From Vermamoeba vermiformis (lineage: Eukaryota), in the NCBI GenBank assembly GCA_045837725.1, contig JBEWZL010000200.1, positions 62,001 to 126,000 on the forward strand: a stretch of DNA of 64,000 nt, written 5' to 3'. A program made the translations under genes and the position numbers. Of this stretch, positions 1,836 to 29,260 are shown piece by piece (the first letter of the stretch is position 1; each line of letters begins with the position of its first letter). The notes beneath the pieces were generated by a model. That model was not told where the DNA came from. It did no database searches and saw only the letters and a program-made list of their open reading frames with translations.

Positions 1836-2131
1836 TGTGTTATTATTGATGTCTAGACAGGCCGAACACGCAACAAAAACACAAAATTAAAATTTAGCGA
1901 GCGCTAGATAAACTTCATAAAACGGATGCACAATTTTTTCTGTCAGGCGACTCCGACATTGCCAATTATGCTTGTAGCAAGTAATGACAACCCTCATTAC
2001 ATTTACCGTCGAATAATCCACTGTTGCTAATTTGTGAACACGCCGAGACAAACACGAAATCCGGAACCTCTGCTTTGGTTCGCTAACATCGAAATCAAAT
2101 AATAAAATCCGACCAATTATCATATCACAGT

Positions 2132-4637
2132 ATGGATTGGAGGTTCGAAGGATGCGAGCTACCGTCTGAAATCTGGCATCTAATTGCGTCCTATCTTCCA
2201 GTAGTAGCTATAGTGAGGTAATTACGTACATATATAAATACCCACTAGCAGTGTTTATGTAATTATAATTCACTGCTGCGAGATCCGCTCCGTTTGTTAT
2301 TAATACAAAAAATACGATAGATTTTTTTGAGCGGTTTCTTTCGTGAAAAATAAATGAAAAATTATTTTCAAGCGTTGAGTTTAGCATAATGATATATTAG
2401 AGCTTCGGCATCTCCAGATCTGATCTAACAATTATTTATTAGAGCTTCAGAGGTCAACAAAGAAAGCACTAAATGTCTCTACTACATCTACGACTTGGAT
2501 TTAACGAAAATGGAGATTAATGCTTCGTGGCACAAGTTCAGCAGCATCGCGCGACGCCTGCCAAATGTTCGACGGCTTTCTGTCCACTGTGGCGTAAAAG
2601 CGCGGCATTTTGGACAAATGCTGCACATAAATTTTTTCCTGCGCAGCAGAAAACAAAAAGTTGCACATTCGCACAGTTCGCAAAAAGATCAATCTCGTAA
2701 CAGTGTCACCACAGAAGGTAAAACAACATTAATAGCTGTAGGTCAATATTACATATTAATTTCATGTGTAATATTACCCTCCGCTAACAGCAGGACCAAT
2801 AGTAATTTATTTAGATTTAGATATCGAAGATGTAGTGGCGAGGATCAATTGACAACCATATATAAACTGGTAATAAATACTTTTAAGTTTTTAACAGTAT
2901 TTGTACTAATAAATTTAACGTTTCAGATTGCGGATCGAATCGAATGCGTGCAGACTTGCTCCCATTTATTCGTAAGCACTAGTACTGCAGTATTTGGTGA
3001 AAAATAATATATTGCAAGCATTTAAGGCATTAACAATATTAACTATAATTTTGTAAGGCCAGAGTTGGAGATCTGTCATTGGATTTAAATTTTGAATAAG
3101 GAACGATAGGGTCCCTTTCAAACTTTGTATGGGTGCGTATTAAATATGTAACTAATACTAGGCAATATTGCTAACTCATCTGATTTCAGGATCCTGAAAG
3201 GGTCGATCTGGTGACAAAACTCGGCCCGCACGTCAAACTCAGGCAAGTAATTGAGATAATATAATATTATATATTATTCGAAGTAATATTAATATTAATA
3301 AATATTTAGATCTGATCGAGGTTCGGGGCCTGATGATCGCGAAGTTACTGCTGAACTGTGACGAGAAGTCACTTCTGGTTGTTAACCATAATAAATGATA
3401 CTTCTAGAAGTAATGTACTGGAAAATGCTCAGCTTTTTAAATGCTCGGAATCTTCGCCGCTCAGCACTTCTAAAAATGCCGAGCTTTTACGCCACAGTGT
3501 CAATATTAGGACGGAAAGCCACGTCAATGCGATGCATAATATAACAATACTAGAGAATTTACAAGAATTATTGCTCTATGGAGGCGTCTATTTGAATATT
3601 GGACAAAGACCGCTGATCTGCGACATTACGCAAAAGCTCCTTCACTTACAACGCTTACTTCTCGAAATATATCCTCGCAATCTCGATCAAATAGTGGATG
3701 CTACACCCAATCTTACGAGTTTGGCCATCAGCACGGCAAGACGAGATAAATTAATGCATCTGAACGCGTTAGCGAAATTAACCAAGCTCAAAGAACTGAA
3801 GATAGCCGCAATTGGCAATAAAGCGCTAGAACCCTTCGACAAGTTTTCACAGCTAACAACATTAACCAAGTTAAACTTGACCGGAGCCGAGTTCAACGAA
3901 GTTTTGAATTTTGGAGATCTGACTCTACTTGCCGACTTGGGCGTATTGAAGCTTAATCAGATAAAATACGACTCAATGAATGGCGTCATGCACAAACTGA
4001 CGAATTTGCGGCGCTTAGACTTTCTGCAGCACATCCACGGCTCGTCCAGCGAAACACTGTTGGACGAGTGTGAGGGGCTTACACGACTGACTCACCTTTA
4101 TATTGATGATGTATACGGAAAAGAGGCAAAGATTTTGGCTCTTTCGCAACTTAAAAGCTTTGCAGTAAGTATTTAGCGCAACTTTTTACTCGTGCACACG
4201 TGGATCTTCAACACTTTCGGTCAACTTTAGATCATTTACTAATCCTTTTTTGGGCATAGGTACTTGGCATGTTCAATGGCATCGAGACAATGTCACATTT
4301 GCGAAAGCTGAAATTGATCAGCATGATTCAAGCGGATGCGTTCCATGCTGTGTGTAGCTCGATGACAGCTTTGGAGCGCCTCTACCTGTGGTCGTGGCTG
4401 AATTGGCATATTCACGACAAAGACTTCGAGGATATCACGAAGCTAAATAACTTGACCTCATTGTATATCTATGGAATGGATCTAGTCACCAACGAGGGAT
4501 TTGGATGCGTAACCAAACTCACTCGGCTGCGGAGGTTGGATTTTGCCGGAGAATTAGTGACCACGGACGTGCTTTCTGAATTGAGGCAACTAACGAACCT
4601 TAACTTCCTTTGTATTAATTCTTCAATGCCTAAATGA
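2132..4637 (+). pseudogene. F-box + leucine-rich-repeat gene interrupted by a DNA transposon
   Basis: Exon 1 MDWRFEGCELPSEIWHLIASYL is F-box-like; LRRs in 3502-4637. Removing 2585-3501 restores the frame ...RRLSV|NIRTESH...; paralogue of 4722-6123. Confidence 0.8.
2585..3499. mobile_element. Non-autonomous CACTG-ended (CACTA/EnSpm, CMC-like) DNA transposon, 915 bp
   Basis: Terminal inverted repeats CACTGTGGCGTAAAAGC(G/T)CGGCATTTT (27 bp, 1 mismatch); 2-bp TC duplication at 2583-2584 and 3500-3501; short AAATGC-type subterminal repeats near the right end; no transposase ORF. Confidence 0.85.
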
Positions 4638-6299: not shown

Positions 6300-9200
6300 A
6301 TGTGGCTGATCAGATCTCTGCTTTTGATAGTCGTTTTATACGGCGTAATTACTCCTTCCACAACGTTGGAGAGCCAAGAATATTCTTTTTTTCAGGATTT
6401 TTTCCTCTTAAATCCGCCAGCGTGGACACGCTATTTAACACCAGGATGGGACTCAACCCAAATCGTATCAGCTTGCGATTGGGCAGGTGTAATGTGCAAC
6501 AGTAATCAAACAAACGTTATACGATTGTAAGTTTAAAGATCAATATTGAAGCAAAAAGTTTCGAGACAGATCTGACATTTGATTTCAATAGAATTTAAGA
6601 CTCAACGAAATTATAAATTTAAATATCGTTTATTTATTTACGGCAATTAATTGCTACTAATATTTTAATTAATTAATGAGATACTGTTTGAATTCGAATT
6701 TTCTCGCGAAAGAGACGGCGAGCACAAACCGTCCATTCTACCTTTTAGGGCTTTTATTTGACTATAAATCATGTACTGAATTAAGGAATCACGACATAAC
6801 GAATCAATTTTATTACTAGGGTTTTGGACGGAATCCGATCTCTAACAACCTCGAACATAACATTGCCGCCGTCAATTAACAAATTAACGCAGCTGCAAGA
6901 GCTGTAAGTATTCATAATGAAAAGATTAGAACATGAACCTCATTGTGCACGTGCAAATCCGCTGTCGTTTGGCGGATTTTATTTGTGATTCACGCGGCAT
7001 TATTAGAACAAATATACTACCTCTTATTGATTAATATGATTCAGATCTCTTGGCCAAATTCCGCTGGGACGTTTGCCGGATGCAGTTACACAACTTTCGA
7101 ACTTGCAAATTCTGTAAGATCAGCGTTTTTAGAACCATATTATTTTTAATAATACTAATTCTCATTAAGGAACTTGGATCGGACGAATATTCCCTCTTTG
7201 CCAGACAATATTGGCGCGCTAAAAAATTTAACTCGAATGTAAGTGCTCCTAAATTACTATTTATTGAGTAATAATTGCTAATTTAATATTACAGTGATTT
7301 ACCAGCTATATCAAGTTTACCACTATCATTTAGAGACTTAACGTCACTTACGCAACTGTACGTCAATTTTTTTAGATCTTAAAAGCAGCTTAATTTACAT
7401 TGATAATTATAGAAATGCTAGAACGTTTAATTTTCGAGCGATGCCTACTATTTTATGCGAGCTAAAATCGCTTCAAATAATTCGTATTGTCGGTGGAATA
7501 CTTAGCGAAGCTTTCCCGCCCTGCTTTGGACAATTAACGGACTTGATTGAACTGTAAGTAAAACGCTATTAAGTAAGGCATATGAGCTAATCCGTATCAT
7601 TTTGCAGTAATATTCAATCGTCAAACTTGAACCACTTTCCTCTTTTTTCAACCTGGCAAAAACTAGAGATTTTGTAAGTAGAAAAAGAAAAGCTTATTCC
7701 CTTATAATTAATCGGTCATATTATTTAGGACGATTGGATACGCTAATTTGCAAGGCACAATTCCTGAAATAATTGGATCGCTAACCAACCTTCGTGAACT
7801 GTATGACAAGTCAACAATTTTTTCTACGACCATCAACTAATATTAATCTATTTGCAGTACTCTTCGCAGCAATATGCTTACGGGGACATTGCCCAGATCG
7901 ATCGGCAATCTGCAAAATTTGGTCTCTTTGTTCGTGGATGTCAACAGGTTAACAGGGACGATTCCAAGTACCATTGGTAACTTGACCAATCTAAGTACGC
8001 TGTAAGTATACTACTTGAAGCCTATACGACGGGCATATATTTATTGACTCAATTATAGCATGCTATTGTCCAATCAGTTCACCGGAACATTGCCTCGTGA
8101 AATTGGCAATTTGATTCATTTACAGCACTTGTGAGTTGATTTTATTTCGTGAAATATCTATTATTAACATTATAAAAGGGATATAAGCACCAATAGGCTT
8201 ACGGGATCGCTTCCTGAAGAGCTCGGACTTTTGACCAACCTGACAGCTTTGTAAGCGGATCTGACGCGTCTTCGCTTCAACCTATACTAATATATGAGTA
8301 TTATAGTGCCTTCACCGATAACTTGTTCAGCGGATCTATTCCTGCATCAATCGTCAATACCTCCTTGCGTTCAATGTAAGATTGGATCTGCAGATCCGTT
8401 TGTCACATTGCCGTTGATTCTAATTGCATTATTCATAGTAACGGAGGCAACAACCAGTTGAGTGGACAAATCCCTGAGGAAATTGGCAAATTGCCTTTAA
8501 GAACAGTGTACGCATCCGCAGATCAAATCCGTTATTTTCGTAACGTAACCTCGTTTTGCTTAGATTGCTATCAAATAATCAACTCTCTGGAACACTGCCG
8601 CCAAGTTTTGAGAATTGTACTATGATGAGAGATTTCAACGTCGCCTTTAACTTAATATCTGGCCCCGTGTTCGATTTCACGAAGTTTACTCAATCAGTCT
8701 CCTTGTACGTACTCGAAAATTATTTTTTCTACCTAAATTCAATCAATTAATGTAATTTTAGGTCGTTTCAATTCAATTTGCTGAACGGAACATTGCCCAG
8801 CGAAGGTTACGAACAATTAATTCGACTAGAAACAATTTCATTTCAGAATAATGACATTCGCGGAACAATTCCGTCGTCTTTAGGAGCAATTAATGCTCGA
8901 ACAATGTAAGCACAAAAATCAAAACTAATGGCTGAACTGACAACTTTTAGTAACTTGTCGAGCAACTGGCTGATCGGAACTATTCCGCCAATTCTTCTCG
9001 TAAACAACACGCGCGTTACGTTTATGTAAGTTTAACTTGTTAAAATTATCATAGTTCGAGCTAATTTTTTGTTAAAGCGATCTTTCTGACAACTTGATCT
9101 CGGGCACTATTCCTCCCATCGACCTCGATAACATTCAAACACTGTAAGAACGGCATTATTCTTTTGGATTTGCGTATCTTATATTAATTGTTAATACAGA

Positions 9201-12200
9201 TTCTTCGAGGACAACATACTTAGTGGTCCTACACCTCCAACAAGTCATTTGAATAATTTGCAGTTTTTGGATTTCAGTCACAATCATCTGTCGGGCACTT
9301 TGCCGGCTTTTTCATCGAGATTGATATATTTGTAAGTATTATAACTATATCTATATAATACATCAAGCTCATTAGTGAATAGGGCACTTAACTTTAACAT
9401 GTTAGAAGGCACTATTCCACCTGAAATTTTCAACATCAACGGCCTCGGATTGCTGTAAGTATTGCCATTTATGGTAATAGCCGGCATTGAATAACACGTG
9501 TGCCTAAATAGGGACTTGTCGTATAACTTCTTGAACGGCACCATTCCACGACTTCCAGCAAGTCAAACTAGTTTGCGACACATGTAAGCTCTAACGTGAT
9601 TTTGTTTTGTTTGTACGGTGCTAATTTCTATTTGGCCTAGTGACTTGTCAAACAATCGACTGACCGGAGAACTTCCGCAAAGTTTGGTTACGATGGTTTC
9701 TATTCAGAACATGTACGTCAATTTCAAACTATCATTTGATATTATTATGCAGTTACTCGATTGATCATTGAGTATCAAACGAGAGTTGTTACCTAAAATA
9801 CGGAGCGAGATCTAATGATTTTTTTTTCAGCATTTTGTCCAATAATTTGCTGTCTGGAAACTTCCCGTTCACTGGCACTCTGTTCAACATTAACATTCTG
9901 TAAGTATCGTATTGTTTAATATGGAGCCTTATACTAACATTGAATCAGTCGAATTGATCGAAATTTCTTGACGGGAAATTTCCCTCGGCACTTTTTGGCA
10001 GCGGTTAACTTGGAGATTTTGTAAGTATTTAACGTTAAATGGCCTATTTAATAATATCTTTGCAGAGATTTATCGGATAATGAGCTAACCGGAGTTATTC
10101 CGTCTACCGCTGATCGGCCACGCAGATTGAAGGAACTATCTCTCGCCAGAAACAAATTAACGGGTGCAATTCCACCGACTTTGTCCAATATTGCAGGTTT
10201 GGAACGATTGTAAGTACACCATTAGTCCTTATAATAATTCAGGTTCTAACAATGTTTTAGGGATTTGTCGGGTAATCTGTTTATCGGAGGTATTCCGCCG
10301 CAATTAGGAACTTTACGTCGATTACGAGCCATTGATTTCTCGAAAAATGATTTGATCGGAACCATTCCCGACACAATCGAAGACTTGACACAATTGGAGG
10401 TTTTGTAAGTGTTACGCTAACGGCCAGATGTCACGTGCTTAACTGCGTTTCATGAACAGGGATCTTTCAGACAATCACATCGAAGGCACGATACCCGAAT
10501 TCATCGGCAACTTGTTCCAACTTCAAGTGCTCAATCTTGGAGGCAACAACTTGATTGGCTCTATCCCGAACTCGATTTTCAATTTGCGAGCCCTGGTCGA
10601 GCTGTGAGTAACTGTCAATTACACGTGTCAAAAAAAAAGTTCAGTAACTGACACCTGTCCAGTGACTTAGGCGATAATCATCTTCAAGGCACAGTTCCCA
10701 GAACTTTATTTACTTTACAGCGTGCTAAGGGACTGTAAGTACTAATCTTTTAAAGTAAAATCTGACCCGTGTCTGACGTACTTTTCGCAGTGATCTCTCG
10801 GACAACAATTTTGTCGGAACCTTGCCCTCAACCTTGTCGCAGATGCGCACTCTCGAGTACTTGTAAGTCCTTAATAACCGCACCATTGACTTATTTTCTA
10901 ACGTGTTTGCAGTAACATTGCCGACAATGCCTTCACGGGTCAAGTGCCGCCTTTGCACAGCTTGGCTAATCTTAAAGAGATGTAAGCTACATTAATCAAG
11001 TGACTAGGCAGTATGTTAATGGTCCTTATAATAAGCTATGTGCAATCAAATAAGTTCAGTGGTTGCATCCGATTGCCGCCGCAGTTCTCGGATCTGGATT
11101 CGAACAGCACATGCGTCCTCGACAACAACAACTTTTGTTGCGCTGATTCAGCGTATAATTGTCGATTTACTGATGGTACGTGCGATGAATACAGTTTTTT
11201 CTAGCACTTGCTAATGGTTCTGCAATAGGCCGATGCGACATCAATTCAGTTCTCAGAATTTCCTCAGGAAATCGGGTGAACATCAACGACGCTGATAGTT
11301 TCACAAGTGAGTATCGAGTACAATGATTATATACGGCAGTTTCTCATATTATCGTTTTAGAGCTCGTTGTGGAGCGAGGTGGAACCTTGGTCATAACACC
11401 ATCGGCCAGCATGTCGCTTGATTGCTTGGAGCTGCAAGGCACAATCGACATTGAAGTAAATGAAGAGTATGAGAGCAAGCAGTTCGAAATGGACTTGTTC
11501 GTCTATACCTGTGGATCCACACAGAACGTGACTTTCCGCACCAGCAAAGGTTGTCGCATTTCACAGAACCGAACGATCAGTCAAATTTCAGGCAATTTCA
11601 GATACGAACTACAACTGGATTGTTCGCTGAATTATATCTCGCAAGGTACACTCAAGTTTTCAATTTTTTCACATTTTCGACATGCTGGATCCGCGGACCT
11701 AACCTACGTCCTATATTTAGGCACTGTCATTGCTATTATTGTAGCGTCGTGTATCGCAGGAGCACTCGCGATTATCGTTGGTGCGGTGACATACAGATAC
11801 TTCAGAGGCAAGCGCCGTGTGAAGCAACTGCTCAACAGAGTCGAGTTGTTGACTTTGACAACAAAAACTTCTGATTATTCCACTCTACCGCAATGGCACG
11901 CTCCCGAACATTACGCTTTGAAGCCAATAGAAGATATGCCTATATACGTTGGTGGAACGAGGTTTGATTTTGGGGCCAAAGGCAACTTGCTCAGAATCGA
12001 GACCCAGTACAAAGACGTCATGAAAGTGCAAATCAAAACAAAGCAAGCACGAAGAGGAGGTCGTGGCCCTGGTCTAATCGAACGATTGCTCGACAAAAAT
12101 ATTACGGTGAAACTGCACCCCGTACAATCGGAGAAGTACCAGCTCGCAATAGATCCGCCCGAAATCCAAGTCAACGAAAAAGACGCGGTAGACGTCACTT

Positions 12201-13425: not shown

Positions 13426-16047
13426 CTACGTGTCCTCGTCATCAAGGGAATCGTTTTCTTCACCCTCTTTAATGGGTATGGGTGCCAAACTCGTCAGTTG
13501 TTTCATCGATGGCATAGACCAATCGTTCTTGAAGAAATCAAGCATCAACAAGAATCCTGGGCCCGTTTGGCTGTCTTTGCTGGCAGGAATAGCGACGAAG
13601 CTGATTGGTGGAACAAGTAATTTTGGTGTAGGAATGTCTTCGAGCTCTACCCTAGCGGTCTCAAAGTCATTGTACGCGGCTAAAAAGCAAGTTAAACTAC
13701 TTAGGTTTTTCAGAGATTAAGTCATATGAAAAATATTACTTACAAGCAAAGTTGCAGAAAAGTGGCTCGTTGCCAAAGCCAATCATAATTTTGTCGTTTT
13801 CAATTAGTATCTTCTCCTTATCGATTTGATATTCTTGATTGAACAATACTAACGTAGAGGATTTCACTTCGAACAGGCCTTCTTCCAAAAGTTCCTGCCA
13901 ATTAGTATCGTCTTTTTCATAGCCTGCCATATATCGTTTCTTAATAGCTTTGAAATCGATCGGGCCTAATATTGAATTCGCAGAAATGTTTTGTAATTTC
14001 CTAACTTTGTTCCATAAATTTGATAAAATGAAGGCTGAGGTCTGAGTGGCCGGATTATTCGGATCCGAAATAACCTTTGAAATGCATTGCAATCCAAACG
14101 CTGTGAAAATGTTCGAGTTCGATGGTGCACCTTTGTCACGTGATCGACCATTAAAATAATCCAAAACAGCAATGACCGCTATTTCCTTCAGATAATCGTG
14201 TGGTGTACTTCCATTCACTGAACCAGGTTCATGAACGTAAGGGAACCAATAGTCGCATCCATTCGTTGCAAACACAAAGTTGCCTCGCCATCGTTTTTGC
14301 AGGACTAAAGGCGGCGCGGAAGTGTCATCTGTCAAGCCCCAGTGCAAATTGTTGACACGTTCGTAGAGCTCGTGAGCGTAGCGTGAGAGTGCAGGTTGAA
14401 AAGTGCTTTGAAGTGTCATGTAGACTGCTGAGTTGAACAATTTGCCGACTTCCGGCGTATGGTTCAATTTCCAGTAATTAAAAATGAGCTCGGTGCGTAA
14501 AAACACTTTGTTTGTCTTCATGAACGGATTGCCTTCGTGCAAGTACTGCTGGTCGAAAATGACGCAGTCGAATTGTTTCACTTTAGTCAGCTCAAACGTG
14601 CTGTTTTTCTTGGTATTTTCGTCGCTATTATCCCACACCTTCATAACAGGACTGCCAGATCCGCTACTGAGATAAATAATCATCGTGAATTTTGACACTT
14701 GCCCTTTAGCAGGATCATAATAAGGAGTGTCCATATGGGCCTCGAATTTTGCATCGCCCGGCGCAAATCTGTTGCAGCGGAACACGTGATTCACCGCCGT
14801 AAACCTCTTGCAATCCAGGTCGGCTGAATCTTTTTCCATAGCTTTAAATGCCTCGGTCAACGCACTGCTTAACTTCTCTGAAGAGAAAATGAAGCGCTCG
14901 CCATCTCTCGTGCTCGAATTTGACGGTTTTTGATAAAGTCCCAACTGATCCAATTGTAGCAGCAGATTCAGACTTGGCCCACCAATAGTCGTTTTGTAAA
15001 TATGCATCCTCTCGGATAAATTTTCAAGAGGAGACATTGTAAATGCCATGCTTTGTTTGTCGCCGAGATGTAACGCTCGATCCAGCGGCAAAATGCACTC
15101 AAAGTTGTGATAGGACAAGTCGCGACCATCGACCCATACAGCATATAGTGGCGTGCTTGAGTCGTTATTTTTGTTGTCATCGCTTTGTTTTTCGCTCATT
15201 TCATCGTCTTCCTTTTTGGTCGCTTTCTTGTGTCGGTTTGACGGTAACTTTGGGATGCTTTTTGGAGCCAGCTGTGCGACGGATTGAAGCAGCGATTGAT
15301 CGATGTCAGAGAGCTCTTCGAGGTCTTTGATATACTTGAGAATTCGTCTGTTCTTCGAGGGGCAGAAAGAGAACGGCAGTGCTTGAAACTCAGCGGAGGG
15401 CACAAAGTCGTCATCCAAAATGTCCAGAATTTTGTTCAAAATTTGCTTCTCGCTTTGATCTAACCAGCCACGCGAGTCAGCCAACCATAAGTCGCGCACT
15501 CCAACGCAAAAATAGAGTGCTTCTTGTTCGTTCAGAGAAGGCAGTTTTGAGGGATCTCGAGAAACTTGTTGCATGAAGGCTAGAGACCTTTTCGAGGCTA
15601 ATGGGTGGGTACTTTTGTCGATTATAAGCGGCCATAGCTTTCCAGTGATAATAGCTCCGGAAACAAGATTTTGCATCAAAAGTTGATCTTCGATCTCTGC
15701 AGATTCGAGGGCGTTGTTGAGCTTTTCATCGCACGATATCAACACTTTATCTTTTTTGTTCACTTTGAGCGTTTGTACCTTGCAATACCTTGCGATTTGC
15801 GAACTGTATTAAATTAAAATTCAATTATTAGATCGAGGTCAGATCTGATCAAAAATTCAAATCTGCTTACGAATCATTCACACGTTCATGTTCGTTTTTT
15901 ATAGATTCCTCTTTTTCCGTTTTTCTGGAGCTGAAAATATTTTAAGATCTTGAATACCTGCGTTTACTTCTCAGGTGCGTACCTAATTTTTGCTTTCTTA
16001 TTCGGAGCAAGATCTTCTTTATTGTTCAATTTTCTTTTGCGTTGCAT
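13426..16047 (-). CDS. Large protein with a 2OG-Fe(II) dioxygenase-like domain
   Basis: FRCNRF..FEAHMD (HxD), IIYLS, LHEG (distal His) and RTELIF; one ~2-kb exon plus small flanking exons. Confidence 0.7.
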
Positions 16048-16799: not shown

Positions 16800-17465
16800 T
16801 CAAACTCTGTAGATGGCATTTTTGTAGGCTTTACCACACATCTGCCAGAACAAGCTGCCGCAATACACGCATTCTGCTGAAGGTAGCGACAATTTTCCAT
16901 ACTTTCCGTACGAGTTTCCACACCAACATTGGTTCCAGTACTGCATGCCAGCAAATCTATAGCCAGCGCTATTGCAGAATGCCATACACGCGGTTGGATC
17001 GGACGTGTCAGGACCGCGGTAAGCCAGTTCACGGTCTTCAGTTTCATTGAAACAACCAAGGAACGCAGCTGGTGTTCGAGTGACGGAATTAATCGCTAAT
17101 CCGCCGCACTTTTCTGTCGCACTCTAAATATAACATCGTTAAATTTTAAATCTTAAACGAACTTTTAATTAACCTACGTTTGGATTGCCAGCGCATACTT
17201 TGTTGCACGACGACGAGTCCAAACTAGCAACCGTGCAATATTGATTACCGCACCAGCATTCATTGCCGTTTTGGGTGCCTGAATAAGCATAGCCTGCTTC
17301 ATAGCACCAACTTGAGCATGCAGAATTCGTGGTAGTGTTGCCCACGTAGAGTTTGAATGGCAGATCTGTTGCGCTGTGATCGAGACAACAGCCCACATAT
17401 TGAGCCATCGTAGCAATCGAGAAGCAACAGGCAATAAACGCGAGCAATACAACTTTTGGTGCCAT
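16800..17465 (-). CDS. Secreted double-WSC-domain protein (gene A)
   Basis: Signal peptide, two WSC domains (GC..D...C...C...GY.YAG.Q....CWCGN), one intron. Confidence 0.9.
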
Positions 17466-17542
17466 GCGTGGTCTTCAGTATTGACTTCGTAAGTGAATAG
17501 AATGCGCATACGAATCACTTTTTAATCCTGTTGTTCCATCGT

Positions 17543-17559
17543 GTCGCAGATATCGCCGC
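17543..17559 (-). promoter_or_regulatory. 17-bp WSC-gene upstream motif (GCGGCGATATCTGCGAC); one of 8 copies
   Basis: Related copies at 17709-17725(+), 24556-24572(-), 24685-24701(+), 26763-26779(-), 27092-27108(+), 29357-29373(-), 29631-29647(+), each oriented with the downstream WSC gene. Confidence 0.7.
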
Positions 17560-17791
17560 AATTGATAACGATTCTGAAACGAGCGGTACTATAATGCACA
17601 AGATAAAATCCGGATGGCAAAAATTGAAATGTTATTTAAGAAATGAATTGATTTATATGTCAACGGAATTGACATGTAAAATCTAGTAGGCAAAGTTTAA
17701 TAATAATAGCGGCTATAATTGCGATCAAAATTAAGTTAATAGACCACTCTTTTCATTTGCTTACTAAAATCGAAACAGAGGAGCATAAATA

Positions 17792-18885
17792 ATGACAAAA
17801 CTAATTTTTTTTGCGTTGATCGCTACTTGCTTATCAATGTCCGTAGTGGCCATAGTGATTGGTTCGGATCCGAATCCATCAACTCCGCCGCCGCCCTCGA
17901 CTTCTCCAACTGCAGAAGCTCCAATTGCAAATTCAGTGCCTATATCTTCAGCGCCAGTATCAGATCCGGTTTCGGTTCCAGTCGCCTCTCCGATCGACTC
18001 GCCAATTGCAACTACCCTGTCAGATCCGGTAGCAGCACCACCTGTCGATCCTATTGATGCACCAATCGCAACACCTGTTGATACTCCAATAGCTGCTCCA
18101 ATTAACTCTCCTGTCACTGCACCTATCGCGGTCCCAATCACAGTTCCTGTTGCCAATCCAATTGCTGTACCCGTGACAGTGCCGGTCTCAGCTCCAGTTC
18201 CAACACCTGTAGCCATCCCAGTTGCAGCGCCAGTTGCAGCACCAGTTGCAGCACCCAATCCAGTGGCTTCAGCGTTCATTGGCTGCTTCGAAGATTCTGC
18301 GTCAAGAGATTTGCCATACAAAGCTTATGCTGACTCTTCGAACACAAATGTCCGTTGCATTAACGCTTGCACGACTGCTGGCTACGCTTATGCAGGTTCA
18401 CAAAACGGAAATGAATGTTGGTGTGGAAATACGTATGGCAGCAAGGGCGTTTTTAATGAACAAATGTGCAATGTCGCCTGCACTGGCGATACTACTGTAA
18501 GTACTGTAACCGTTCGCAGATCCAAACTTAGATTATTAATACAATTTTCTAGCAATACTGCGGTGGACCCTACAGAAACTCAGTGTATAGAACGCCTTCA
18601 CGCTACATTGGCTGCTTCCAAGATTCGTCCAATCGTGACTTAAAATTCAACGGGTACTGGGGGAATGCCTACAGTCTGCCTTACAATTGTCAGGAGATCT
18701 GCAGAATGGCTGGCTATGCGTATGCTGGCTTGCAAACAGGCAGTGAATGCTGGTGCGGCAATAGTTATGGCTCACAAGGTCGTTTGAGCGAAGGTGCTTG
18801 CAATGTCTTGTGCACGGCGTCTAATCCACCTTATTCCACCGTCGTATGCGGCGAAAGCTGGATCAACTCAGTTTACAGAGTGTAA
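17792..18885 (+). CDS. Secreted Pro/Val/Ala-rich stalk + double-WSC protein (gene B)
   Basis: Signal peptide, xPV/xPI tetrapeptide repeats, two WSC domains, intron ~18497-18552. Confidence 0.9.
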
Positions 18886-19055
18886 AATCTTGCGTTGTAC
18901 CAGGTCCCGTTGAAAAATAAAGTTGTTCATGGCTCGGTAATTCGAAATGAAATTTTGATCTGAAAACAATTCAACAATTAAGGAGTGATACAGCATGAAG
19001 CAGAGATAATTTTAGGGCTCTTGTAAGTATATAGCAAGTATTATTGTAGATATTT

Positions 19056-19255
19056 GTGCAGCTACAGTGACGCAGCACTTAGCGTATGAATAGGCCAAGC
19101 GGATCGGTTTTTTGGCAGCCCTGGTGGAGAAGTCACGTGCGATTCACACCAAAATTGGAAGTTCGAGGAAATAGAAGTGTCGAACGCCAACGCCAAGACT
19201 ACCACAAGGCTCGTATATTTGACAGAGCCTAATATTCATTTGTTAATTTTTTCTT
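19056..19255 (+). repeat. Split direct repeat A1 (200 bp)
   Basis: Reads identical to 23406-23605 by eye. Confidence 0.95.
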
Positions 19256-19277
19256 AATTCGGAAATAAATTTCAACG

Positions 19278-20643
19278 ATGACTGCGAGACAATCGTTTAT
19301 CCAGAACCTAGTGGAGACACTCAAGACCCCACTACTCTCAAACTGGCCTGAAGCGCGACTCTGGAAGCAAGCTCTGGGATCCGTGAAATGGTCGATCATA
19401 GATCAGGCTGGGTCAGATGTGGACCAGCTTCGCTTCTTATGCTCCCTGGCGTTGGCGTACTGCTTAGGAGGGGAGTTTGATCAATTGGAGCGCAGCCCAG
19501 CAGTGTCGAAGGAGGAAATCTCTCGGATCTACTCCAAGGCGGCAGATTTAGTGGAGGATCCGGAGCTGTTGCCGTTGTTGGCCCCAGTGACTAAACGGGT
19601 GGAGAATTGGTCGTCCCAAGGACCTCCTCAGCCAGTGGATCGCCCATCGGAGTCTCCTGAGAAGATCAACTCGGATGGCGACCAAGATTCAGAAGACTCA
19701 GACAGTGCTGAAGCGGAGATTGCCCGAGCTGTCCGAGAGTACATGAAGAAGAAGCGCAATAAACGGCAGAAGATCGGAGAGTCTCAACCGAAGACCCCTG
19801 CTACAGCCCCAGCAGTGCAGATCACGGATGTCCCCCCTCCTAGCGCTTTGGCGAAAGACCCTAAGGTGGCGGCAGGTGCTGACGCACTCATCGCCCAATT
19901 GGAGCTCAAGTTGTCGTCGATGAAATCGCAGTTGGACTCGCTAGCTGGGAGCCTCGTTCCCCAGAGCCCCATCAACAACTTGCTTTTGCCTCAGCCCTGG
20001 GGCCAATCTTTGATCCACGGAACGTCGAAAGCCACCCCTGTTGGTCAACTGGCGGATGTCCAAGCGACAGTCGAGCTGAGGAAGCCAGGCCAGGTCTATC
20101 AAGGAGGCATTGGAGAAGAGGTTGCAACCCTCGCAGGCTAAGGTCCCACAGAACGCGGAGGATTATATCCGAGCGTCGTGGGAAGTCAAGGACCTCCTCG
20201 AGAAGGAGGAAGGTTTCGTCGAGCGAGATTACAATGCCTTTGTCCGCTGGATCGTGGAGCTTGGTGATGGCTACGAATGGCTCTCAGTTATGGCACTGGA
20301 CGAGCGCCTCAGATCGCTCCAAGCAGTGGGCAAGCTTCGCTGGAAAGACAGGCCCTTGGAGAGCCTCTTCACTACTCTTCGAGCTCGTCCAATTCATCAA
20401 CGTGCCGAGGCCAAGCAGGACAACAAGCCCAAGGCCTTTTCAGGCACCAAGAAGAAGAAGGGTGTCTGCTTTGCTTTCAACGGTCACAAGGGTTGTTCGA
20501 AGAGCGCTGATGCATGCGAGTACTCTCATTCGTGCTCTGACTGTAAGTCCTCCAATCACAATGTCCTTCATTGCTCCAGTGGCCCAAAAGGCCATCCCGG
20601 CAAGACGAGTTCATCGGGCGCGTCTGCGGAGCGCCGGGAGTAG
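19278..20643 (+). CDS. Gag-like protein of the YR retrotransposon, split over two frames (19278-20141 and ~20080-20643)
   Basis: Second part has YEWLSVMALDERLR and a C-terminal Cys/His finger CFAFNGHKGC..ACEYSHSCSDCKSSNHNVLHC, as expected for Ngaro/DIRS gag. Confidence 0.8.
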
Positions 20644-22205
20644 AGATCGTAGCCCGCTCTAGTGCAGTGACTCTCCGCTTCAATCAGTGGAAGAGATTCT
20701 TGGTGGGGGACTCTGACGCGGACTTCCTGACCGACATTTTCAAGCCTGGTGGTGGCCTTCGAGTTGTCAAGGAGGGTGTGGCTGTGCCAGCGTCTTTCTT
20801 GCCGAACTACGCTAGTGTCTTGGAGTGCGAAGACTTCATCCACCAAGACATTATGACGGAACTAGAGAAGGGTTTCATTGCAGTACTGCCAGTCCAACCA
20901 TACAAAGTCAATGCTCTTGGTGCAGTCAAGAAGAGCGAAGGCAAGTTCCGTCGCATTACTGATCTCAGTCGCCCAAAGGGCACGGCGTTGAATGAATACA
21001 TTGATTTGGTCAATTTTCAGTTTAGCACGGTCGATGATGCATGCGACTTCATAATGGAAAACCCTTGGGTTTTTGGCTGCAAGTTCGACATTGAAACAGC
21101 TTATCGTCATGTCCCAATCTGGCCGGGTGACTGGCATTACTTTGGCTTCGAGTGGCGTGGCACCTTCTACATCGATCTGCGCCTCTGCTTTGGTCTAGCT
21201 TCAGCTCCTTACGTTTTCTGGAGAATTTCTAATTTCATTGTCCGAGTAGGCAACAAGTTCTTTAACGTGGCCTTCATTTTGCCCTACATTGACGACTTCC
21301 TCGTGCTTTCTGTTGGCACTGACTCTGATGCTGCACGCACTCAAGCTTGGAAAGACTTCGTCAATTTCCGCGAGTGTCTAACCGAATTGGGTTGGCCAAT
21401 TTCGGAGAAGAAGATGGTTGAGCCCTGTCAAGATCTGGTCTTCCTTGGCATCGGCATCAATATGCATGATCGCATCATTTCTTTACCAGAAGACAAGCTA
21501 GCTGACCTTCTCGACATTCTACGGAGCTTCAAGGATCGAGTTTCGTGCACTAAGCGCGATCTGGAGCGCTTGATTGGTAAGCTCAACTTCGGCGCTAAAG
21601 TGATCAGGGGCGGACGCACTTTCCTCCGCCGCATGATCATCCTGGCCAACTCAGTCCCAGAGCGACATCACGTGGTGTCTCTAGACGATGAATTCCGTGC
21701 AGATTTGGATTGGTGGCTTCGATTTGCGAGCGCCTGGAATGGCAAAGCCGTTATGCTGGACCCAATGCCCATTGACATGCGTCGGTTTGAGGTGGACGCC
21801 TCAAATAGTGCTGCGTGTGCTATCTTCGACAAGCACTTCATCGTGCGGATCCACGACCCTTCGACATCTGCGTGGCACATCAATGATAAGGAGTGCCTTT
21901 CAGTCTACTTGGCTGCGCTTCGCTGGGCCCCAGAATGGGCCAACAAGCGGGTGATTGTCTCATCGGACAATACCACGACCGTTTCGGCCATCAACAAGGG
22001 GTCTTCAGCATCCCCAATCATCATGCGAATGCTACGGTCTCTGTTTTGGCTATCAGCGACACACAACTTTCACTTGACTGCGGTCCACATACCGGGGGTT
22101 CTTAACGACCTGGCAGATGCGGGTTCGCGATTGAACTTCGACAAACTGATTGACAAAGGGCTCTCCATGCAGTTGTGCCCCGAGTTTGATCCAGAATGTC
22201 TTTGA
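20571..22205 (+). CDS. Reverse transcriptase - RNase H
   Basis: KFRRITDLS, KFDIETAYRHVP, LCFGLASAP, YIDDF; RNase H VDAS..HINDKE..SDNTT..HIPGVLNDLADAGSR. Confidence 0.95.
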   Translation: MLQWPKRPSRQDEFIGRVCGAPGVEIVARSSAVTLRFNQWKRFLVGDSDADFLTDIFKPGGGLRVVKEGVAVPASFLPNYASVLECEDFIHQDIMTELEKGFIAVLPVQPYKVNALGAVKKSEGKFRRITDLSRPKGTALNEYIDLVNFQFSTVDDACDFIMENPWVFGCKFDIETAYRHVPIWPGDWHYFGFEWRGTFYIDLRLCFGLASAPYVFWRISNFIVRVGNKFFNVAFILPYIDDFLVLSVGTDSDAARTQAWKDFVNFRECLTELGWPISEKKMVEPCQDLVFLGIGINMHDRIISLPEDKLADLLDILRSFKDRVSCTKRDLERLIGKLNFGAKVIRGGRTFLRRMIILANSVPERHHVVSLDDEFRADLDWWLRFASAWNGKAVMLDPMPIDMRRFEVDASNSAACAIFDKHFIVRIHDPSTSAWHINDKECLSVYLAALRWAPEWANKRVIVSSDNTTTVSAINKGSSASPIIMRMLRSLFWLSATHNFHLTAVHIPGVLNDLADAGSRLNFDKLIDKGLSMQLCPEFDPECL

Positions 22206-23272
22206 CAGCGGAAGATTACATTGGCCTCGGCTATGTGGACTCCACGGTCAAGGCCAGGCAGGCAGTGGTTTTGGCCTTTGCCAGGTTCTGCTACGCTTCA
22301 AATCGAACATTCTTCCCGACAAACGAGTTTGTCCTGGCCGACTACGCGGCATATCTTGCAAATAATGGTGTCAAGGCAAGTTCGATCAAGACATACTTGA
22401 CAGCCATTTTCGCCTTTCAACAGTTGCATGGTGGCCCACACCCAGCACGTGACAGCCTTCGCCTCAAGGTGGTCCTCAAGGGCATTAAACGCGCACAGTC
22501 CTACACACCGTCGAGCAAGCACCCCCTCACTCCTGTGGAGTTGCTCAAAATCAAGGCATGCTTAGACTGGTCATCGTCTCTCCATCGCACCTTCTGGGCT
22601 TGCCTCGTGGTTGGTTTCTGGTCATTTCTTCGGGGTGGAAACCTAGTGCAGAAATCCGCGAAGAAATTCGACCCAGCGAAGCATCTCAGCGCGTTGAACT
22701 TGTCGAGGAACGAGCGTGGATTTTTGATTTCGCTCAATCGAACGAAGACAGTCCAATTCAACGAGAGAAGGCTGATCATCCCGCTACTCTCAGTACCGGG
22801 AAATGCACTGTGTCCCGAAGTGGCCCTGGAGGCGATGTGGGCCTTGTGTCCCATGCCTGAATCAGGGTCGCTTTTTTGTTTTAAGGGTGATGACGGTAGA
22901 GTTATGCCGCTGGTGCACTCAAAGCTTAACGATAGTAAGTATTGTGGCAGTAGTTGCATATTGTGCTTACTTACCTGTTTTTCTCCAGTGATCAAGAAGA
23001 CCTGCCTTCAGTGCGGGTTGGATCCGAAGGATTTCTCCGCACATTCGCTGCGTAAAGGTGGCACGACGGGAGCCTTCATCGCGGGAGCGGACAGGGTGAT
23101 GGTCAAAGCTCAAGGAGACTGGGTGTCAGACGCCTACATGCGTTATGTCACTTTTTCTCTGGATCAGCGCTTGTCAGTCCCACAGGCGATCATCGAGGCG
23201 ATGAGAACTCCTCAATTTTTTGAGCGCTGCTCTTCCTTGTCACTAGCGACAGCGGCGGCGATCTATCAATGA
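22196..23272 (+). CDS. Tyrosine recombinase with a predicted 54-nt intron (22935-22988)
   Basis: Catalytic R (FLRGGN), K (RTKT), HSLRKGG, GDW.SDAYMRY; ATG overlaps the end of the RT-RH ORF. Confidence 0.93.
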   Translation: MSLTAEDYIGLGYVDSTVKARQAVVLAFARFCYASNRTFFPTNEFVLADYAAYLANNGVKASSIKTYLTAIFAFQQLHGGPHPARDSLRLKVVLKGIKRAQSYTPSSKHPLTPVELLKIKACLDWSSSLHRTFWACLVVGFWSFLRGGNLVQKSAKKFDPAKHLSALNLSRNERGFLISLNRTKTVQFNERRLIIPLLSVPGNALCPEVALEAMWALCPMPESGSLFCFKGDDGRVMPLVHSKLNDSKYCGSSCILCLLTCFSPVIKKTCLQCGLDPKDFSAHSLRKGGTTGAFIAGADRVMVKAQGDWVSDAYMRYVTFSLDQRLSVPQAIIEAMRTPQFFERCSSLSLATAAAIYQ

Positions 23273-23300
23273 TCTGGTTTGGGGGCTCGTTCGCTGTGTT

Positions 23301-23740
23301 TGGGGGCTTTGGTGCTCTCGTTAGCCCCAACCCGTGGCGGGGGGTGACGGGGAGCCACCACCCCTAATAAAGCTGAATTTACCCCCACGAGCAGCGCAGG
23401 CATTCGTGCAGCTACAGTGACGCAGCACTTAGCGTATGAATAGGCCAAGCGGATCGGTTTTTTGGCAGCCCTGGTGGAGAAGTCACGTGCGATTCACACC
23501 AAAATTGGAAGTTCGAGGAAATAGAAGTGTCGAACGCCAACGCCAAGACTACCACAAGGCTCGTATATTTGACAGAGCCTAATATTCATTTGTTAATTTT
23601 TTCTTTTTAATTTTTATTTTTATCACGTTGTACAATGGGGGCTTTGGTGCTCTCGTTAGCCCCAACCCGTGGCGGGGGGTGACGGGGAGCCACCACCCCT
23701 AATAAAGCTGAATTTACCCCCACGAGCAGCGCAGGCATTC
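23301..23740 (+). repeat. Right-end repeat block B1-A2-spacer-B2
   Basis: B1 23301-23405 and B2 23636-23740 (105 bp) read identical; A2 23406-23605; each B contains AATAAA. Confidence 0.95.
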
Positions 23741-23832: not shown

Positions 23833-24482
23833 TTACAATCTAAAAACTGAATTTCTCCAAGGACCTCCGCACCATTGCGAATTGTCGCCAGCGCAAGGTT
23901 TGCAATCTGAGGCAGGAGCAGCACCGTAACGTCCGTAGATACCACCACAATAGCATTCGTTACCATTTTGCATGGCAGCGTAGGCGTAGCCCTTAGAACG
24001 GCACACATTCATGCAATAACTGGGATAGTCCACTTTGTACGTAAAACCAGACAGATCTCGAGTTTCTGTATCAACAAAGCATCCAATATAGCGCGCATTG
24101 GTGGCAGAGATCGAATTAATTTGAAATCCGCCACATTTTTCCTTAATATACAATCGTAAGATTTTTTAAACTTAATTTTACAAATTTAAATTAAACTTAC
24201 GTTCGGATTGCCAGAGCAAGGAAGAGAGCAAGAAGCCTTATCTAATTCACCAAAATTGCAAAATGTATTGCCGCACCAGCATTCGTTGCCGTTCTTAGTT
24301 CCAGCCCAGTCATATCCAATTTCCTTGCAATAGCTTCGGCAATCGGCGTTGGTCAAAGTGTTGCCCGTGAAAGCTTTTACTGGGAATGCGGTACCGTGCG
24401 GATCAAGGCAGCAGTCTTGTTGAGCCAGTACAGCCACTGATAGGCAAGTAGCGATCAATGCGAGTACGATAACTTTATTCAT
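23833..24482 (-). CDS. Secreted double-WSC protein (gene C)
   Basis: Signal peptide, two WSC domains, one intron. Confidence 0.9.
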
Positions 24483-24770
24483 TTGTGCTTGTCTTTTTAA
24501 ATGTTAATGAATCGAATGATAATTCAATAGTTATTTAACCGCGCGTGTTTGCGACGTCGCAAATATCGCCGCGTTGAATCATTGCGTGTCAAAAAATGTC
24601 ACAGATCTGAATCGACCATCATTATAAAATTAATGAAATATATAGGACGTACACAAATCTAATTTGGCAAATTTTAAACAAACTGCGGATATATATGCGA
24701 CAAAGAGTGATTTTCAACATGCGATTATAAATCATTAGACCAACACCTCGTCAATTGAACAACACAATCG

Positions 24771-25496
24771 ATGATCTTTAAATTTTTCGTCGTCGCGTTC
24801 CTAGTCTTCAATTTATCAACCGCCGCTCCACCACCAGCAAGTGAATACATTGGCTGTTGCAAAGACGGTGCTGGTGGAGTAAGAGAGTTGCCGGTGAAAA
24901 TGAACCTCACAGTGACAAGCAACCAGCAGTGTCAGACCCTGTGCGGCAACTATGGCTACGCTTTTGCAGGCACGCAGAATGGCAATCAATGCTGGTGCGG
25001 ATACAACAAATGCTCTCAAGGAATTTTTCTCGACACGTTCTGTGCCAAGCCATGTTCTGACACGACGGTAAGTCAATCTAATTATACATACTATCATTCT
25101 CATTTTATTTATTATTGCAGCAAGTGTGCGGCGGTATTTCAAACCGAAACTCAGTGTACAAGGTACCCACTCGTTACGTAGGATGCGTTCAAGACGCAGC
25201 AAACGCTCGCATTTTGCCGTACTCTGCGTACAAAGGCAGCATCAAGAATAAGCCCGATGATTGCATCGCCTATTGCAGAAGAGTCGGACATTACTTCGCT
25301 GGAGTTCAAAACAACGATTGTTGGTGCGGCAGTCAATTAGGTTCATTGCGCTTTGTTGCTGAAAGTCAATGCAGCAGTCCTTGTTCTGGAAACAGCACGG
25401 TAAGTTGGATGCACAAAATTATTAGTGTTTGGACTAATATTAATTCCTAAGATGACCTGCGGTGGCAACCTAAGAAATTCTATGTGGCGTGTATGA
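24771..25496 (+). CDS. Secreted double-WSC protein (gene D)
   Basis: Signal peptide, two WSC domains, two introns each just before the terminal xCGG of a domain. Confidence 0.88.
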
Positions 25497-25755
25497 AATT
25501 TGATGCTCAACAAAATAAACATTAGTTAATTATGCAATATTACTATGAAAAAGAAATTTGAAAATACGAGATCTTGCTTTTACGAACGTGCGTAAACACG
25601 ATTCAGCTTTATATTAATTAAACTCGGTAGATAGCATTACGAAGGTTGCCAGGATACTGGACCGCATCTGCAGCCTAAGATTGAGCCATCAGCAAGTTGT
25701 CAAAAGGTAATAGATCCGATTTATTCCGAATTCAGGAGGAGTTAACAAGGTTATA

Positions 25756-26695
25756 TTAGGCCCTATATACTGAATTTCTGTATGCTTCGCCGCATTTGTC
25801 TCCGTTGAGGCAGCTCGAGCAAGCGTTGTCCGGTGCTCGGCCGTATCTTCCGTATGAATTTCCGCACCAGCATTGGCTCATAAATTGTACGGCAGCATAC
25901 GAGTAGCCTGCACCAGCACATGCTGAGACGCACGTTGCAGCTTGATTTTGACGCACTTCCTGAATATAGAAAGGCAGATCTCGATCGGGGTCGTCAACAA
26001 AGCAACCGATGTATGTATTAGCAGCGGATCTGAAGACCGAATTAATTCCGATAGCACCACATTGGTCCTAAAATACTATATTAATATCGATTGACTTCTT
26101 AAAGTCCATATTTTACTTACACTAGGATTGCTAGCACAAGGTTTGTTGCAAGAAGACGAAGCCAAACGACCAACAGTGCAATATTGATTACCGCACCAAC
26201 ACTCATTGCCATTTTGAGTACCAGCGTAGAGGTATCCTGCTTGCGCGCGGCAATTCTGTTTGTCGCCACCACCGATCACATTTACGTGAGTACCCACGAC
26301 GAATTTTAAACACATCTGACCGATCTAATTCATGAAAATTTCAACAGGCGTATCAGTGGGAGATTGGTCGTTTGATCAGTTCATTTGCGCACGACAATAC
26401 AGAAGTGAATGCGATTCATTTTGTGCTGGATCAAGTGCTCGTCATTAGTTCGCCTCGTAGAGCTGACTACATGAAAATTAGGACTAAGCTCGAGTTTTGA
26501 GCTCTCTTGAACGCCTGCGATGTACAAGAAGTAAATGCACCAAGTCTGGCAATTGGCATTCGTAGTAGCATTGCCGATGTACGCTTTGTACGGCAGATCT
26601 ATTGCGCTGTGATCGAGACAACAGCCCAGAAATTGAGCCATCGATGATGTTGAGAGGAATATAGCGATAAGTGCAAAGAAAATGAGTTTGGCCAT
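25756..26695 (-). pseudogene. Double-WSC gene E (paralogue of A) disrupted by a 290-bp insertion
   Basis: NCQTWC|AQAGYLYAG is split by 26247-26536; the rest of the gene is intact. Confidence 0.85.
26247..26536 (+). other. Inserted fragment of another gene: end of an exon, a 62-nt intron, last exon, stop and 3' flank
   Basis: AAILFVATTDHIY | GTGAGT..CTAAT..CAACAG (26286-26347) | AYQWEIGRLISSFAHDNTEVNAIHFVLDQVLVISS...LEF* (stop 26498-26500). Confidence 0.75.
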
Positions 26696-27168
26696 TGTTG
26701 CGCTCGTGTTGCAGTAAGTTTAAATAATAGTTTATGCACGACAAAAGTGCTATTTTAATAGTGTCGCCGATATCGCCGCAATTTACAATAGTTGCTAGCT
26801 TGTCTGAAAGATGTCAACCAGCGAATTACATAAAATCGAAATAAGCTTATTTCTGACCGTTTTTATAAACCTAGGAATACGCAATCCGTCGAGCTATTAG
26901 CAGTCGTCGAATCAAATTGGCAACATTCGATATTGATCAGTCCTATAGTTCACAAGATTTTTAAGGACAACGTAGTGAACACGGCAAAATTTAAAATGCA
27001 GTTTAAGAAATGAAGGAATTTATAACGTAAGTTGACATTTGAATTGACAAGTAATTTCACTCTCTAATATTCCGGGCAATGATTGGCATTAGCGGCGATA
27101 ATTGCGACCAAACATTTTAATTGTTCCCGTCATTCACTAACTCTTATTGAAACATAATAGCACACATC

Positions 27169-28604: not shown

Positions 28605-29260
28605 TCACGCTTTGTAAACTGAATTTCTCCACCCAGCTCCGCACGTTTGCAAATTATACGCAGAACAAGCCAAGCAGTCTGAGGCAGGAGCAGCTCCGTA
28701 CCGGCCGTATGTATTACCGCACCAGCACTCGTTACTGTTTTGCACGCCAGCGTATTTATAGCCAGCAGTGCGGCACGTGGTAATGCAATCGCCGGGATAG
28801 TCCAGATTCGGTCCTCGGTAAGTCAGATCGCGAGTGTCAGCATCAATGTAGCAACCAATATAACGGGCGTTGGTCATATAGACCGAGTTAATAGCAAATC
28901 CACCGCATTTTTCCTGAATTATAAAGATATAAGATTTTTATTTAAATAATTTTTTAATTTCAGCAGATCTTGACTTACGTTTGCATTACCAGCGCAAGGT
29001 GAATAGCAAGATGAGGCATCTAATTTACCGAGACTGCAAAAGGCATTTCCGCACCAGCATTCGTTGCCGTTTTGAGTACCAGCGTAGTCATAATTAAGTT
29101 CGCTACAATAGCCTCTGCAATCTGCATTGGTCACTGTGTTGCCCCAATACGCTTTGAACGGCATATCTACGCCATTAGGATCGATGCAGCAGGCAGTCTG
29201 AGCGAGCACTGTCGTTGACAGGCAAGTAGCGATCAATGCAAGTACGATAATGTTATGCAT
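28605..29260 (-). CDS. Secreted double-WSC protein (gene G, paralogue of C)
   Basis: Signal peptide, two WSC domains; shares GNT.TNADCR and TNARYIGC with C. Confidence 0.9.

Follow-up and report, generated by a model that had tools for sequence, protein, structure and literature searches.

Introduction

The intron of the legume element Ogre is reportedly the subject of primary papers by Neumann in 2003 and by Steinbauerova in 2008, and a Nature Genetics paper of 2003 is said to deal with Penelope-like elements with introns. In Ogre, a Ty3/gypsy LTR retrotransposon, passages of PMC6317226 and PMC3735527 describe a sense-strand intron of the polyprotein region that is present in the genomic copies and is spliced from a subset of the transcripts, from which the downstream enzymes are translated. 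Penelope-like elements are presented, in the portion of PMC4209133 devoted to them, as retroelements keeping spliceosomal introns in their genomic copies. In addition, sections of PMC3735527, PMC5580714 and PMC10309623 outline for retroviruses, copia, BARE and the Arabidopsis Copia a scheme in which the unspliced RNA is the genome and the spliced RNA alters the protein that is made.

[quoted passage not shown] Introns, in turn, serve as an argument for the DNA transposition of Cryptons. In these YR DNA transposons, the YR gene may contain introns (PMC13465315). Here we describe a YR retrotransposon, located in a stretch of 64,000 nucleotides (hereafter, the window), whose subfamily would show that this rule can fail. 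Taken together, the comparisons presented below make it probable that the segment 22935-22988 (+) of its recombinase gene is a genuine phase-1 spliceosomal intron of the U2 type, gained once at the base of the subfamily and inherited via retrotransposition, and that the recombinase is splicing-dependent.

Results

Architecture of the element

The interrupted YR open reading frame (ORF) sits in a 4.7-kb element (19052-23740) with split direct repeats, arranged in the order A1 - internal - B1 A2 B2 on the + strand. Specifically, the A1 repeat, which forms the left end (19052-19255, +), is 99.5% identical over 204 nt to A2 (23402-23605, +) and 78% identical to positions 1805-1999 of L002, a relative recovered from metagenomes. 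The B1 repeat (23301-23405, +) is 100% identical over 105 nt to B2 (23636-23740, +), which forms the right end, and the B1/A2 junction reads ...GGCATT/CGTGCAG. The GC content ranges from 0.48 to 0.58 inside the element, compared to 0.35-0.46 in the flanks.

The first coding region is a gag-like ORF1, to which no Pfam family could be assigned. Its first part starts at the ATG at 19278 (19278-20141, +, in the stop-to-stop frame 19269-20141) and matches amino acids 61-349 of the L002 ORF1 up to position 20099; its second part lies in another frame (20080-20643, +), with amino acids 356-534 of the same protein matching 20101-20640. The frame of the window copy breaks at about 20099/20101, while L002 has one continuous ORF1 of 534 aa, and an indel at 20099 separates the window from the dominant DNA contig of the element's family. 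Given this defect in ORF1, the window copy is probably not autonomous. ORF1 is broken in this copy although the terminal repeats are 99.5-100% identical.

The second coding region, ORF2 (20547-22205, +), encodes a reverse transcriptase and an RNase H, with Pfam matches to RVT_1 (E 5.5e-08, above the curated cut-off) and to RT_RNaseH (E 0.0021, below the cut-off). Pfam returned only these two domains on ORF2, and no methyltransferase domain, which is a DIRS-like feature; there is no space for a further domain, since the YR ORF begins within the last codons of ORF2. The YR start codon, the ATG at 22196, is located inside the last codons of the RT/RNase H frame, whose stop is at 22203-22205, an overlap that would suit a mechanism of termination-reinitiation. 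The YR gene consists of exon 1 (22196-22934, +) and exon 2 (22989-23272, +, stop codon included), separated by the 54-nt segment under study.

By its structure, which combines split direct repeats, RT/RNase H and a Cre-like YR, the element is of the Ngaro type as defined in PMC13465315; the label is a structural one, applied according to the definition quoted there. This architecture agrees with the original prediction, according to which the YR gene of such an element is interrupted, in the sense orientation, by an intron of the spliceosomal type.

The element is nested in a cluster of genes that encode WSC domains and occupy both strands (16800-18885 and 23833-26719), where four ORFs match Pfam WSC with E-values from 5.7e-13 to 2.3e-17. 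The cluster represents a tandem family, as 23844-23982 is 76% identical to 28616-28754. Elsewhere in the window, a 690-aa open frame (13736-15808, -) matched no Pfam family at E 0.001. At least half of the words sampled from the element (19052-23740) were found in eight of the DNA runs X1-X10, including water and aquifer metagenomes as well as runs labelled organism A, and this word content indicates that near-identical copies occur in several studies; the search for runs containing the element returned no RNA run.

The recombinase and its active site

On the YR, Pfam gave weak matches only, all below the cut-offs, and the family assignment is based on the PDB profile search and on the fold. 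A profile built from 60 YR sequences matches Cre with an E-value of 7e-20, and the AlphaFold (AF2) model of the protein, with a mean pLDDT of 92, aligns in Foldseek with Cre structures at TM scores of 0.62-0.75. The 60-sequence alignment shows no variation at R146, K184, H283 or W309, and at least 90% of its sequences retain R286 and Y317 (residue numbers are those of the read-through product). We take these residues to be, after Cre, the R, K, H, R, W/H and Y of the catalytic set. According to the alignment, exon 1 carries R146 and K184, and exon 2 the other four of the six conserved active-site positions (H283, R286, W309 and Y317).

The confidence of the AF2 model drops to a pLDDT of 55-74 over residues 241-260, overlapping the insert that the 54-nt segment would encode (residues 247-265). 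In the profile alignment, Cre has 12 extra residues at the exact site of this insert.

A probable host-like intron in the YR gene

The original prediction placed at 22935-22988 a 54-nt segment with the structure GTAAGT...CTTAC...YAG, AT-rich, host-like and contained in the YR ORF, and it is exact on reading the sequence. The segment starts with GTAAGT (22935-22940). Two overlapping CTTAC motifs (22966-22970 and 22970-22974) are located 15 and 19 nt from its 3' end and are followed by TGTTTTTCTCC, which provides a branch-point-like motif and a pyrimidine tract. The 3' portion includes a T tract (22978-22982) and TGTTTTTCTCCAG, which extends to 22988 and ends in CAG, a YAG-type acceptor. The GC content is 0.389, against 0.52-0.54 in the two flanking exons. 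The stop-to-stop frame 22190-23272 (+) runs unbroken across the segment (...KLND SKYCGSSCILCLLTCFSPV IKK...). The intron is in phase 1, the last base of exon 1 being the A at 22934 and exon 2 opening with TG at 22989, and the product of its excision reads ...KLND-M-IKKTCLQCGLDPKDFSAHSLRKGG, in agreement with the original prediction.

The splice-signal motif is not, by itself, above chance: of 1000 dinucleotide-shuffled versions of the YR ORF, 21% contain a loose form of the pattern. What sets it above chance is its position, which coincides with an 18-column gap in 11/11 insert-free relatives and with a site that is interrupted in 15 other close relatives, as detailed below.

Many short GTAAGT...YAG segments are present in the host. 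In one host gene (7239-11360, +) we counted at least 14 candidate introns of 45-66 nt, most of them of this form, with a median length of 54.5 nt and a mean GC content of 0.32; the length is a multiple of three for seven of the 14, and cutting seven candidates out produces a frame of 282 aa, compared to 76 aa for the uncut sequence. The segment 22935-22988 is host-like in size, and in length and composition together it resembles the candidate host introns.

The branch region contains TACTTAC (22968-22974), a stretch that resembles the 5' end of U1 snRNA and is exactly complementary, in reverse, to the GTAAGTA (22935-22941) with which the intron begins at its 5' splice site. The minimum-free-energy fold of the intron alone pairs the two heptamers at -11.7 kcal/mol, a value equalled by 18 of 200 shuffles, and the corresponding intron of L001, a second metagenomic relative, folds otherwise.

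Interruption of the same codon in related recombinases

A search of a set of 5.8 billion proteins returned 20 relatives with 46-98% identity, which were aligned with six more distant YRs; the close relatives counted here are 21, namely the 20 database proteins and the window copy. Five of the 21 show an exact 18-column gap at the site (P0006, P0008, P0010, P0011 and P0012), and the same gap is found in all six outgroup sequences (P0025, P0027, P0029, P0030, P0031 and P0035). The remaining 16 are interrupted at the same codon: five of them, the window copy, P0004, P0005, P0007 and P0009, read through an 18-residue insert, and eleven (P0001-P0003 and P0013-P0020) terminate inside it. Excision of the insert gives a gapless match to each of the 11 insert-free relatives, five close and six outgroup. 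The fragments P0040 and P0074, which are absent from the tree described below, are also without the insert. These alignments bear out the expectation of the original prediction that homologous YRs would show an 18-aa gap, and that removal of the segment would restore the usual YR spacing; as protein sequence, the 18 residues are not common to the homologous YRs.

The peptides, from which the splice signals of the 18 protein-only relatives were deduced, are compatible with splicing throughout. In 16/16 interrupted relatives the residues following the junction (S/C/R, then K/E/M/T) fit a codon split as N/GT and followed by AAG, GAG, ATG or ACx, and in all five read-throughs the final residues of the insert fit xxA G/Tx, as required for a YAG acceptor.

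Length versions of the intron

A metagenome scan yielded two close loci, L001 and L002 (79% protein identity), and nine distant or partial ones. Both L001 and L002 carry at the same codon a 66-nt GTAAGT...TTAG segment (with a TAG end) that contains two in-frame TAG codons and differs from the window intron by indels of 1, 2 and 9 nt; TACTTACC is retained in both. No insert was seen in the six alignments viewed of distant loci (L003-L008), and scans of viral contigs and of genome contigs provided no further DNA relatives.

A third version is implied within the window element's own family. The contig of DNA run X7 that covers 21183-23331, the dominant one in this family, has one T fewer in the T tract, at 22978, and P0001 and P0024, two proteins with 98% identity, terminate in ...CFLQ followed by the stop; both observations point to a 53-nt, out-of-frame intron. 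Furthermore, the X7 contigs show no joint skipping the intron and, as contigs lose rare variants, this means that the common form is the one carrying it (depth over the element, 967-4119 in this run, read without a single-copy baseline). The original prediction had proposed a check for genomic copies devoid of the 54 nt, and none appears among these contigs, from which rare variants are dropped.

The downstream exon is conserved at the protein level. Between the window and L001, pN and pS are 0.085 and 0.788 in exon 2, and 0.127 and 0.813 in exon 1, values which indicate purifying selection on exon 2 across a lineage whose introns contain stops. The intron segment, instead, behaves as a sequence free of coding constraint, considering its versions of 53, 54 and 66 nt, the in-frame stops of L001 and L002 and the truncation of 11 of the 16 interrupted relatives. 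In conclusion, the retention of GT...AG ends and of a branch-like motif, the length changes by amounts that are not multiples of three, the accumulated stops, and the conserved catalytic exon downstream are the reasons for which the segment is identified as an intron, and a splicing-dependent production of the complete recombinase is likely in most members of the subfamily.

History of the intron

A maximum-likelihood tree with 27 rows was built from the part of the alignment that precedes the site. It brings the 21 close relatives together (98/96) and places the insert-free ones in two clades, of which one is the sister (95/91) of a clade of nine intron-bearing members. One intron gain followed by two losses would be the simplest account of this topology, a count on which the base of the close-relative group, unsettled in this tree, has a bearing. 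The insert-free relatives could be spliced transcripts, lineages that lost the intron or lineages ancestrally free of it, and one would expect the intron to be lost occasionally, by the copying of spliced RNA.

The existence of insert-free relatives, seven in all, also lends itself to a different explanation, according to which the intron-bearing copies are non-autonomous passengers, mobilised in trans by the recombinase of intron-free masters, and the intron is spliced poorly or never. The broken ORF1 of the window copy would fit this scenario, as would the lack of spliced RNA in the three RNA runs X22-X24, except that these runs, which bear the same species label, have 0 reads on 19052-23740 and are no test of expression or splicing. 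The candidate masters, on the other hand, are at most 56% identical to the window element's family, and the X7 DNA contigs contain no intron-skipping joint, with the proviso about rare variants given above. In addition, purifying selection persists on exon 2, and all of the interrupted relatives that were examined have retained their splice signals. On balance, we consider the passenger explanation improbable.

Equally to be weighed is the proposal, central to the original prediction, that the stop-free state of the intron is a selected device, in which the unspliced RNA would give an inactive or regulatory YR with an 18-residue insert next to the active site, and splicing would activate the enzyme. 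In its favour, the insert is 18 residues long in each of the five interrupted relatives, out of 16, that read through; moreover, an insert may be tolerated at this position, given the extra residues of Cre at the same site and the unperturbed remainder of the AF2 fold. Nevertheless, three independent changes on the tree are required for the read-through state, and the nearest relatives do not show it: within the family, neither the dominant contig nor the two proteins with 98% identity are in frame, and L001 and L002 each have two in-frame stops. A stop-free frame is also easily obtained, as 49% of 20,000 interior shuffles of a 54-nt intron of the same composition are free of stops. Finally, P0004, P0005, P0007 and P0009, which share the length and the stop-free frame but belong to another clade than the window, have read-through peptides that differ at about half of their positions. 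A selected device of this kind is hence quite unlikely. The stop-free condition of the window copy looks like an accident, a by-product of the 54-nt length and of a T-rich composition rather than a conserved device, although the read-through product may be of use in some lineages.

The claim that splicing switches on the recombinase is retained, as a consequence, in one respect and abandoned in the other: most members would depend on splicing to make a complete YR, but the in-frame, stop-free state does not hold as a designed gate, in view of the 53-nt and 66-nt versions, of the 11 relatives out of 16 that stop inside the segment and of the shuffling result.

The last alternative, that the 54 nt are a lineage-specific coding insertion of 18 residues and no intron at all, relies on the frame being open in the window copy and in four relatives, and can be dismissed as hardly credible, being already contradicted by 11 of the 16 interrupted relatives, which contain stops or frameshifts, by length classes of 53, 54 and 66 nt with indels of 1, 2 and 9 nt, and by the retained GT...AG ends and branch-like motif, along with a GC content of 0.39 against 0.52-0.54 in the exons and a low pLDDT over the insert.

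Conservation of the intron and of its flanks

The spliceosomal intron was compared between the window and L001 over the stretch 22899-23024, corresponding to L001 1977-2114. The intron is identical at 46 of 54 positions, against an identity of only 41-44% at third codon positions. If the rate of the third positions is assumed, at least 46 identities out of 54 have a probability of 7e-11, which becomes 0.019 with the rate of the exons overall; among 914 exon windows of the same 54 nt, only 47 attain 45 identities. The similarity extends to the flanks: third positions are identical in 10 of the 12 codons that close exon 1 and in 8 of the 12 that open exon 2, compared to an average of about 5 in 12. 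The conserved part takes in the middle of the intron, beyond the usual splice signals, and suggests a function that goes beyond splicing signals, on the strength of a signal that derives from one pair of lineages. Alternatively, a patch of local recombination would explain the similarity of intron and flanks.

No support for an RNA structure in or around the intron was obtained, with z-scores from +0.27 to -1.54, nor were compensatory changes seen in any of the 17 consensus pairs among three sequences. Rfam gave no family for the region, and a sub-threshold snoRNA match fell elsewhere, on the minus strand.

Discussion

The data presented above depict the following scenario for the life cycle of the element. 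The intron would have been gained once, at the base of the subfamily to which the window element belongs, and then inherited through retrotransposition. The template that is copied would be the unspliced, full-length RNA, as the original prediction proposed. The intron persists throughout a diverged subfamily with saturated synonymous sites, which implies that the RNA that is reverse transcribed would normally have to retain it. In most members, the complete recombinase would be translated from the spliced RNA fraction only, because the stops and frameshifts precede H, R, W and Y. The transcript pool would be split in this way into an intron-bearing template and an intron-less recombinase mRNA, similarly to what the pol intron of the plant Ogre brings about.

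It is tempting to speculate that the intron, with about 36 nt on each side, constitutes a conserved cis-acting RNA element, a tentative idea that we regard as possible rather than probable. In its boldest form, the block might mark the unspliced RNA as the template, in analogy with an intronic retroviral packaging signal, or might throttle splicing. If true, such a cis element would explain how an intron is retained in an essential gene over many rounds of reverse transcription, and the conserved block of about 130 nt would be a small and concrete target for studying how a retroelement guards its intron against loss. From a practical point of view, ORF-based annotation will give truncated or odd recombinases for elements of this kind, as is the case for 11 of the 16 interrupted sequences considered here.

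Intron-bearing retroelements are already known, as in the case of Penelope-like elements and Ogre, and the intron in a YR retroelement is apparently an unreported variant, no report of one having been found. In full-text literature we found no DIRS-order or Ngaro element described as containing an intron, although an earlier mention is possible, for example in the founding Goodwin and Poulter papers, in a 2015 review or in supplements. The word 'intron' occurs 0 times in the YR-retroelement surveys PMC3783388, PMC3266345, PMC6681497, PMC4157794 and PMC9210276.

The Ngaro and other DIRS-order YR retrotransposons resemble the window element in the A1...B1-A2-B2 arrangement, the gag-like ORF, the RT/RNase H and the YR (for the definition of Ngaro, see PMC13465315); the window element would differ from those surveyed in having an intron within the element. 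Cryptons share with it a Cre-like YR gene, possibly with introns, but possess neither a reverse transcriptase nor split direct repeats, both of which are present here; the two features rule out that the window element is itself a Crypton.

A further comparison is offered by retroviruses, copia, BARE and Copia, where, as far as the cited sections go, splicing removes coding sequence in favour of Gag or Env and the unspliced RNA encodes every enzyme; in the window element, by contrast, it is the enzyme gene itself that is interrupted. Penelope-like elements, as portrayed in the portion cited, have in common with the window element that introns are retained in the genomic copies, but they rely on a telomerase-like RT and a GIY-YIG endonuclease, integrate by another mechanism and have no tyrosine recombinase.

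The parallel with Ogre, so far as the passages cited describe it, lies in a sense-strand intron present in the genomic DNA and in the splicing of some transcripts, which is needed for the enzymes and would play the same role in the window element. Ogre differs in being an LTR element with a DDE integrase, while the window element, known here from DNA and protein sequence alone, has a 54-nt intron inside the catalytic domain of its YR. In this respect the element adds, outside the LTR and Penelope-like elements, a case where the splicing machinery of the host may determine how much template RNA there is relative to enzyme mRNA.
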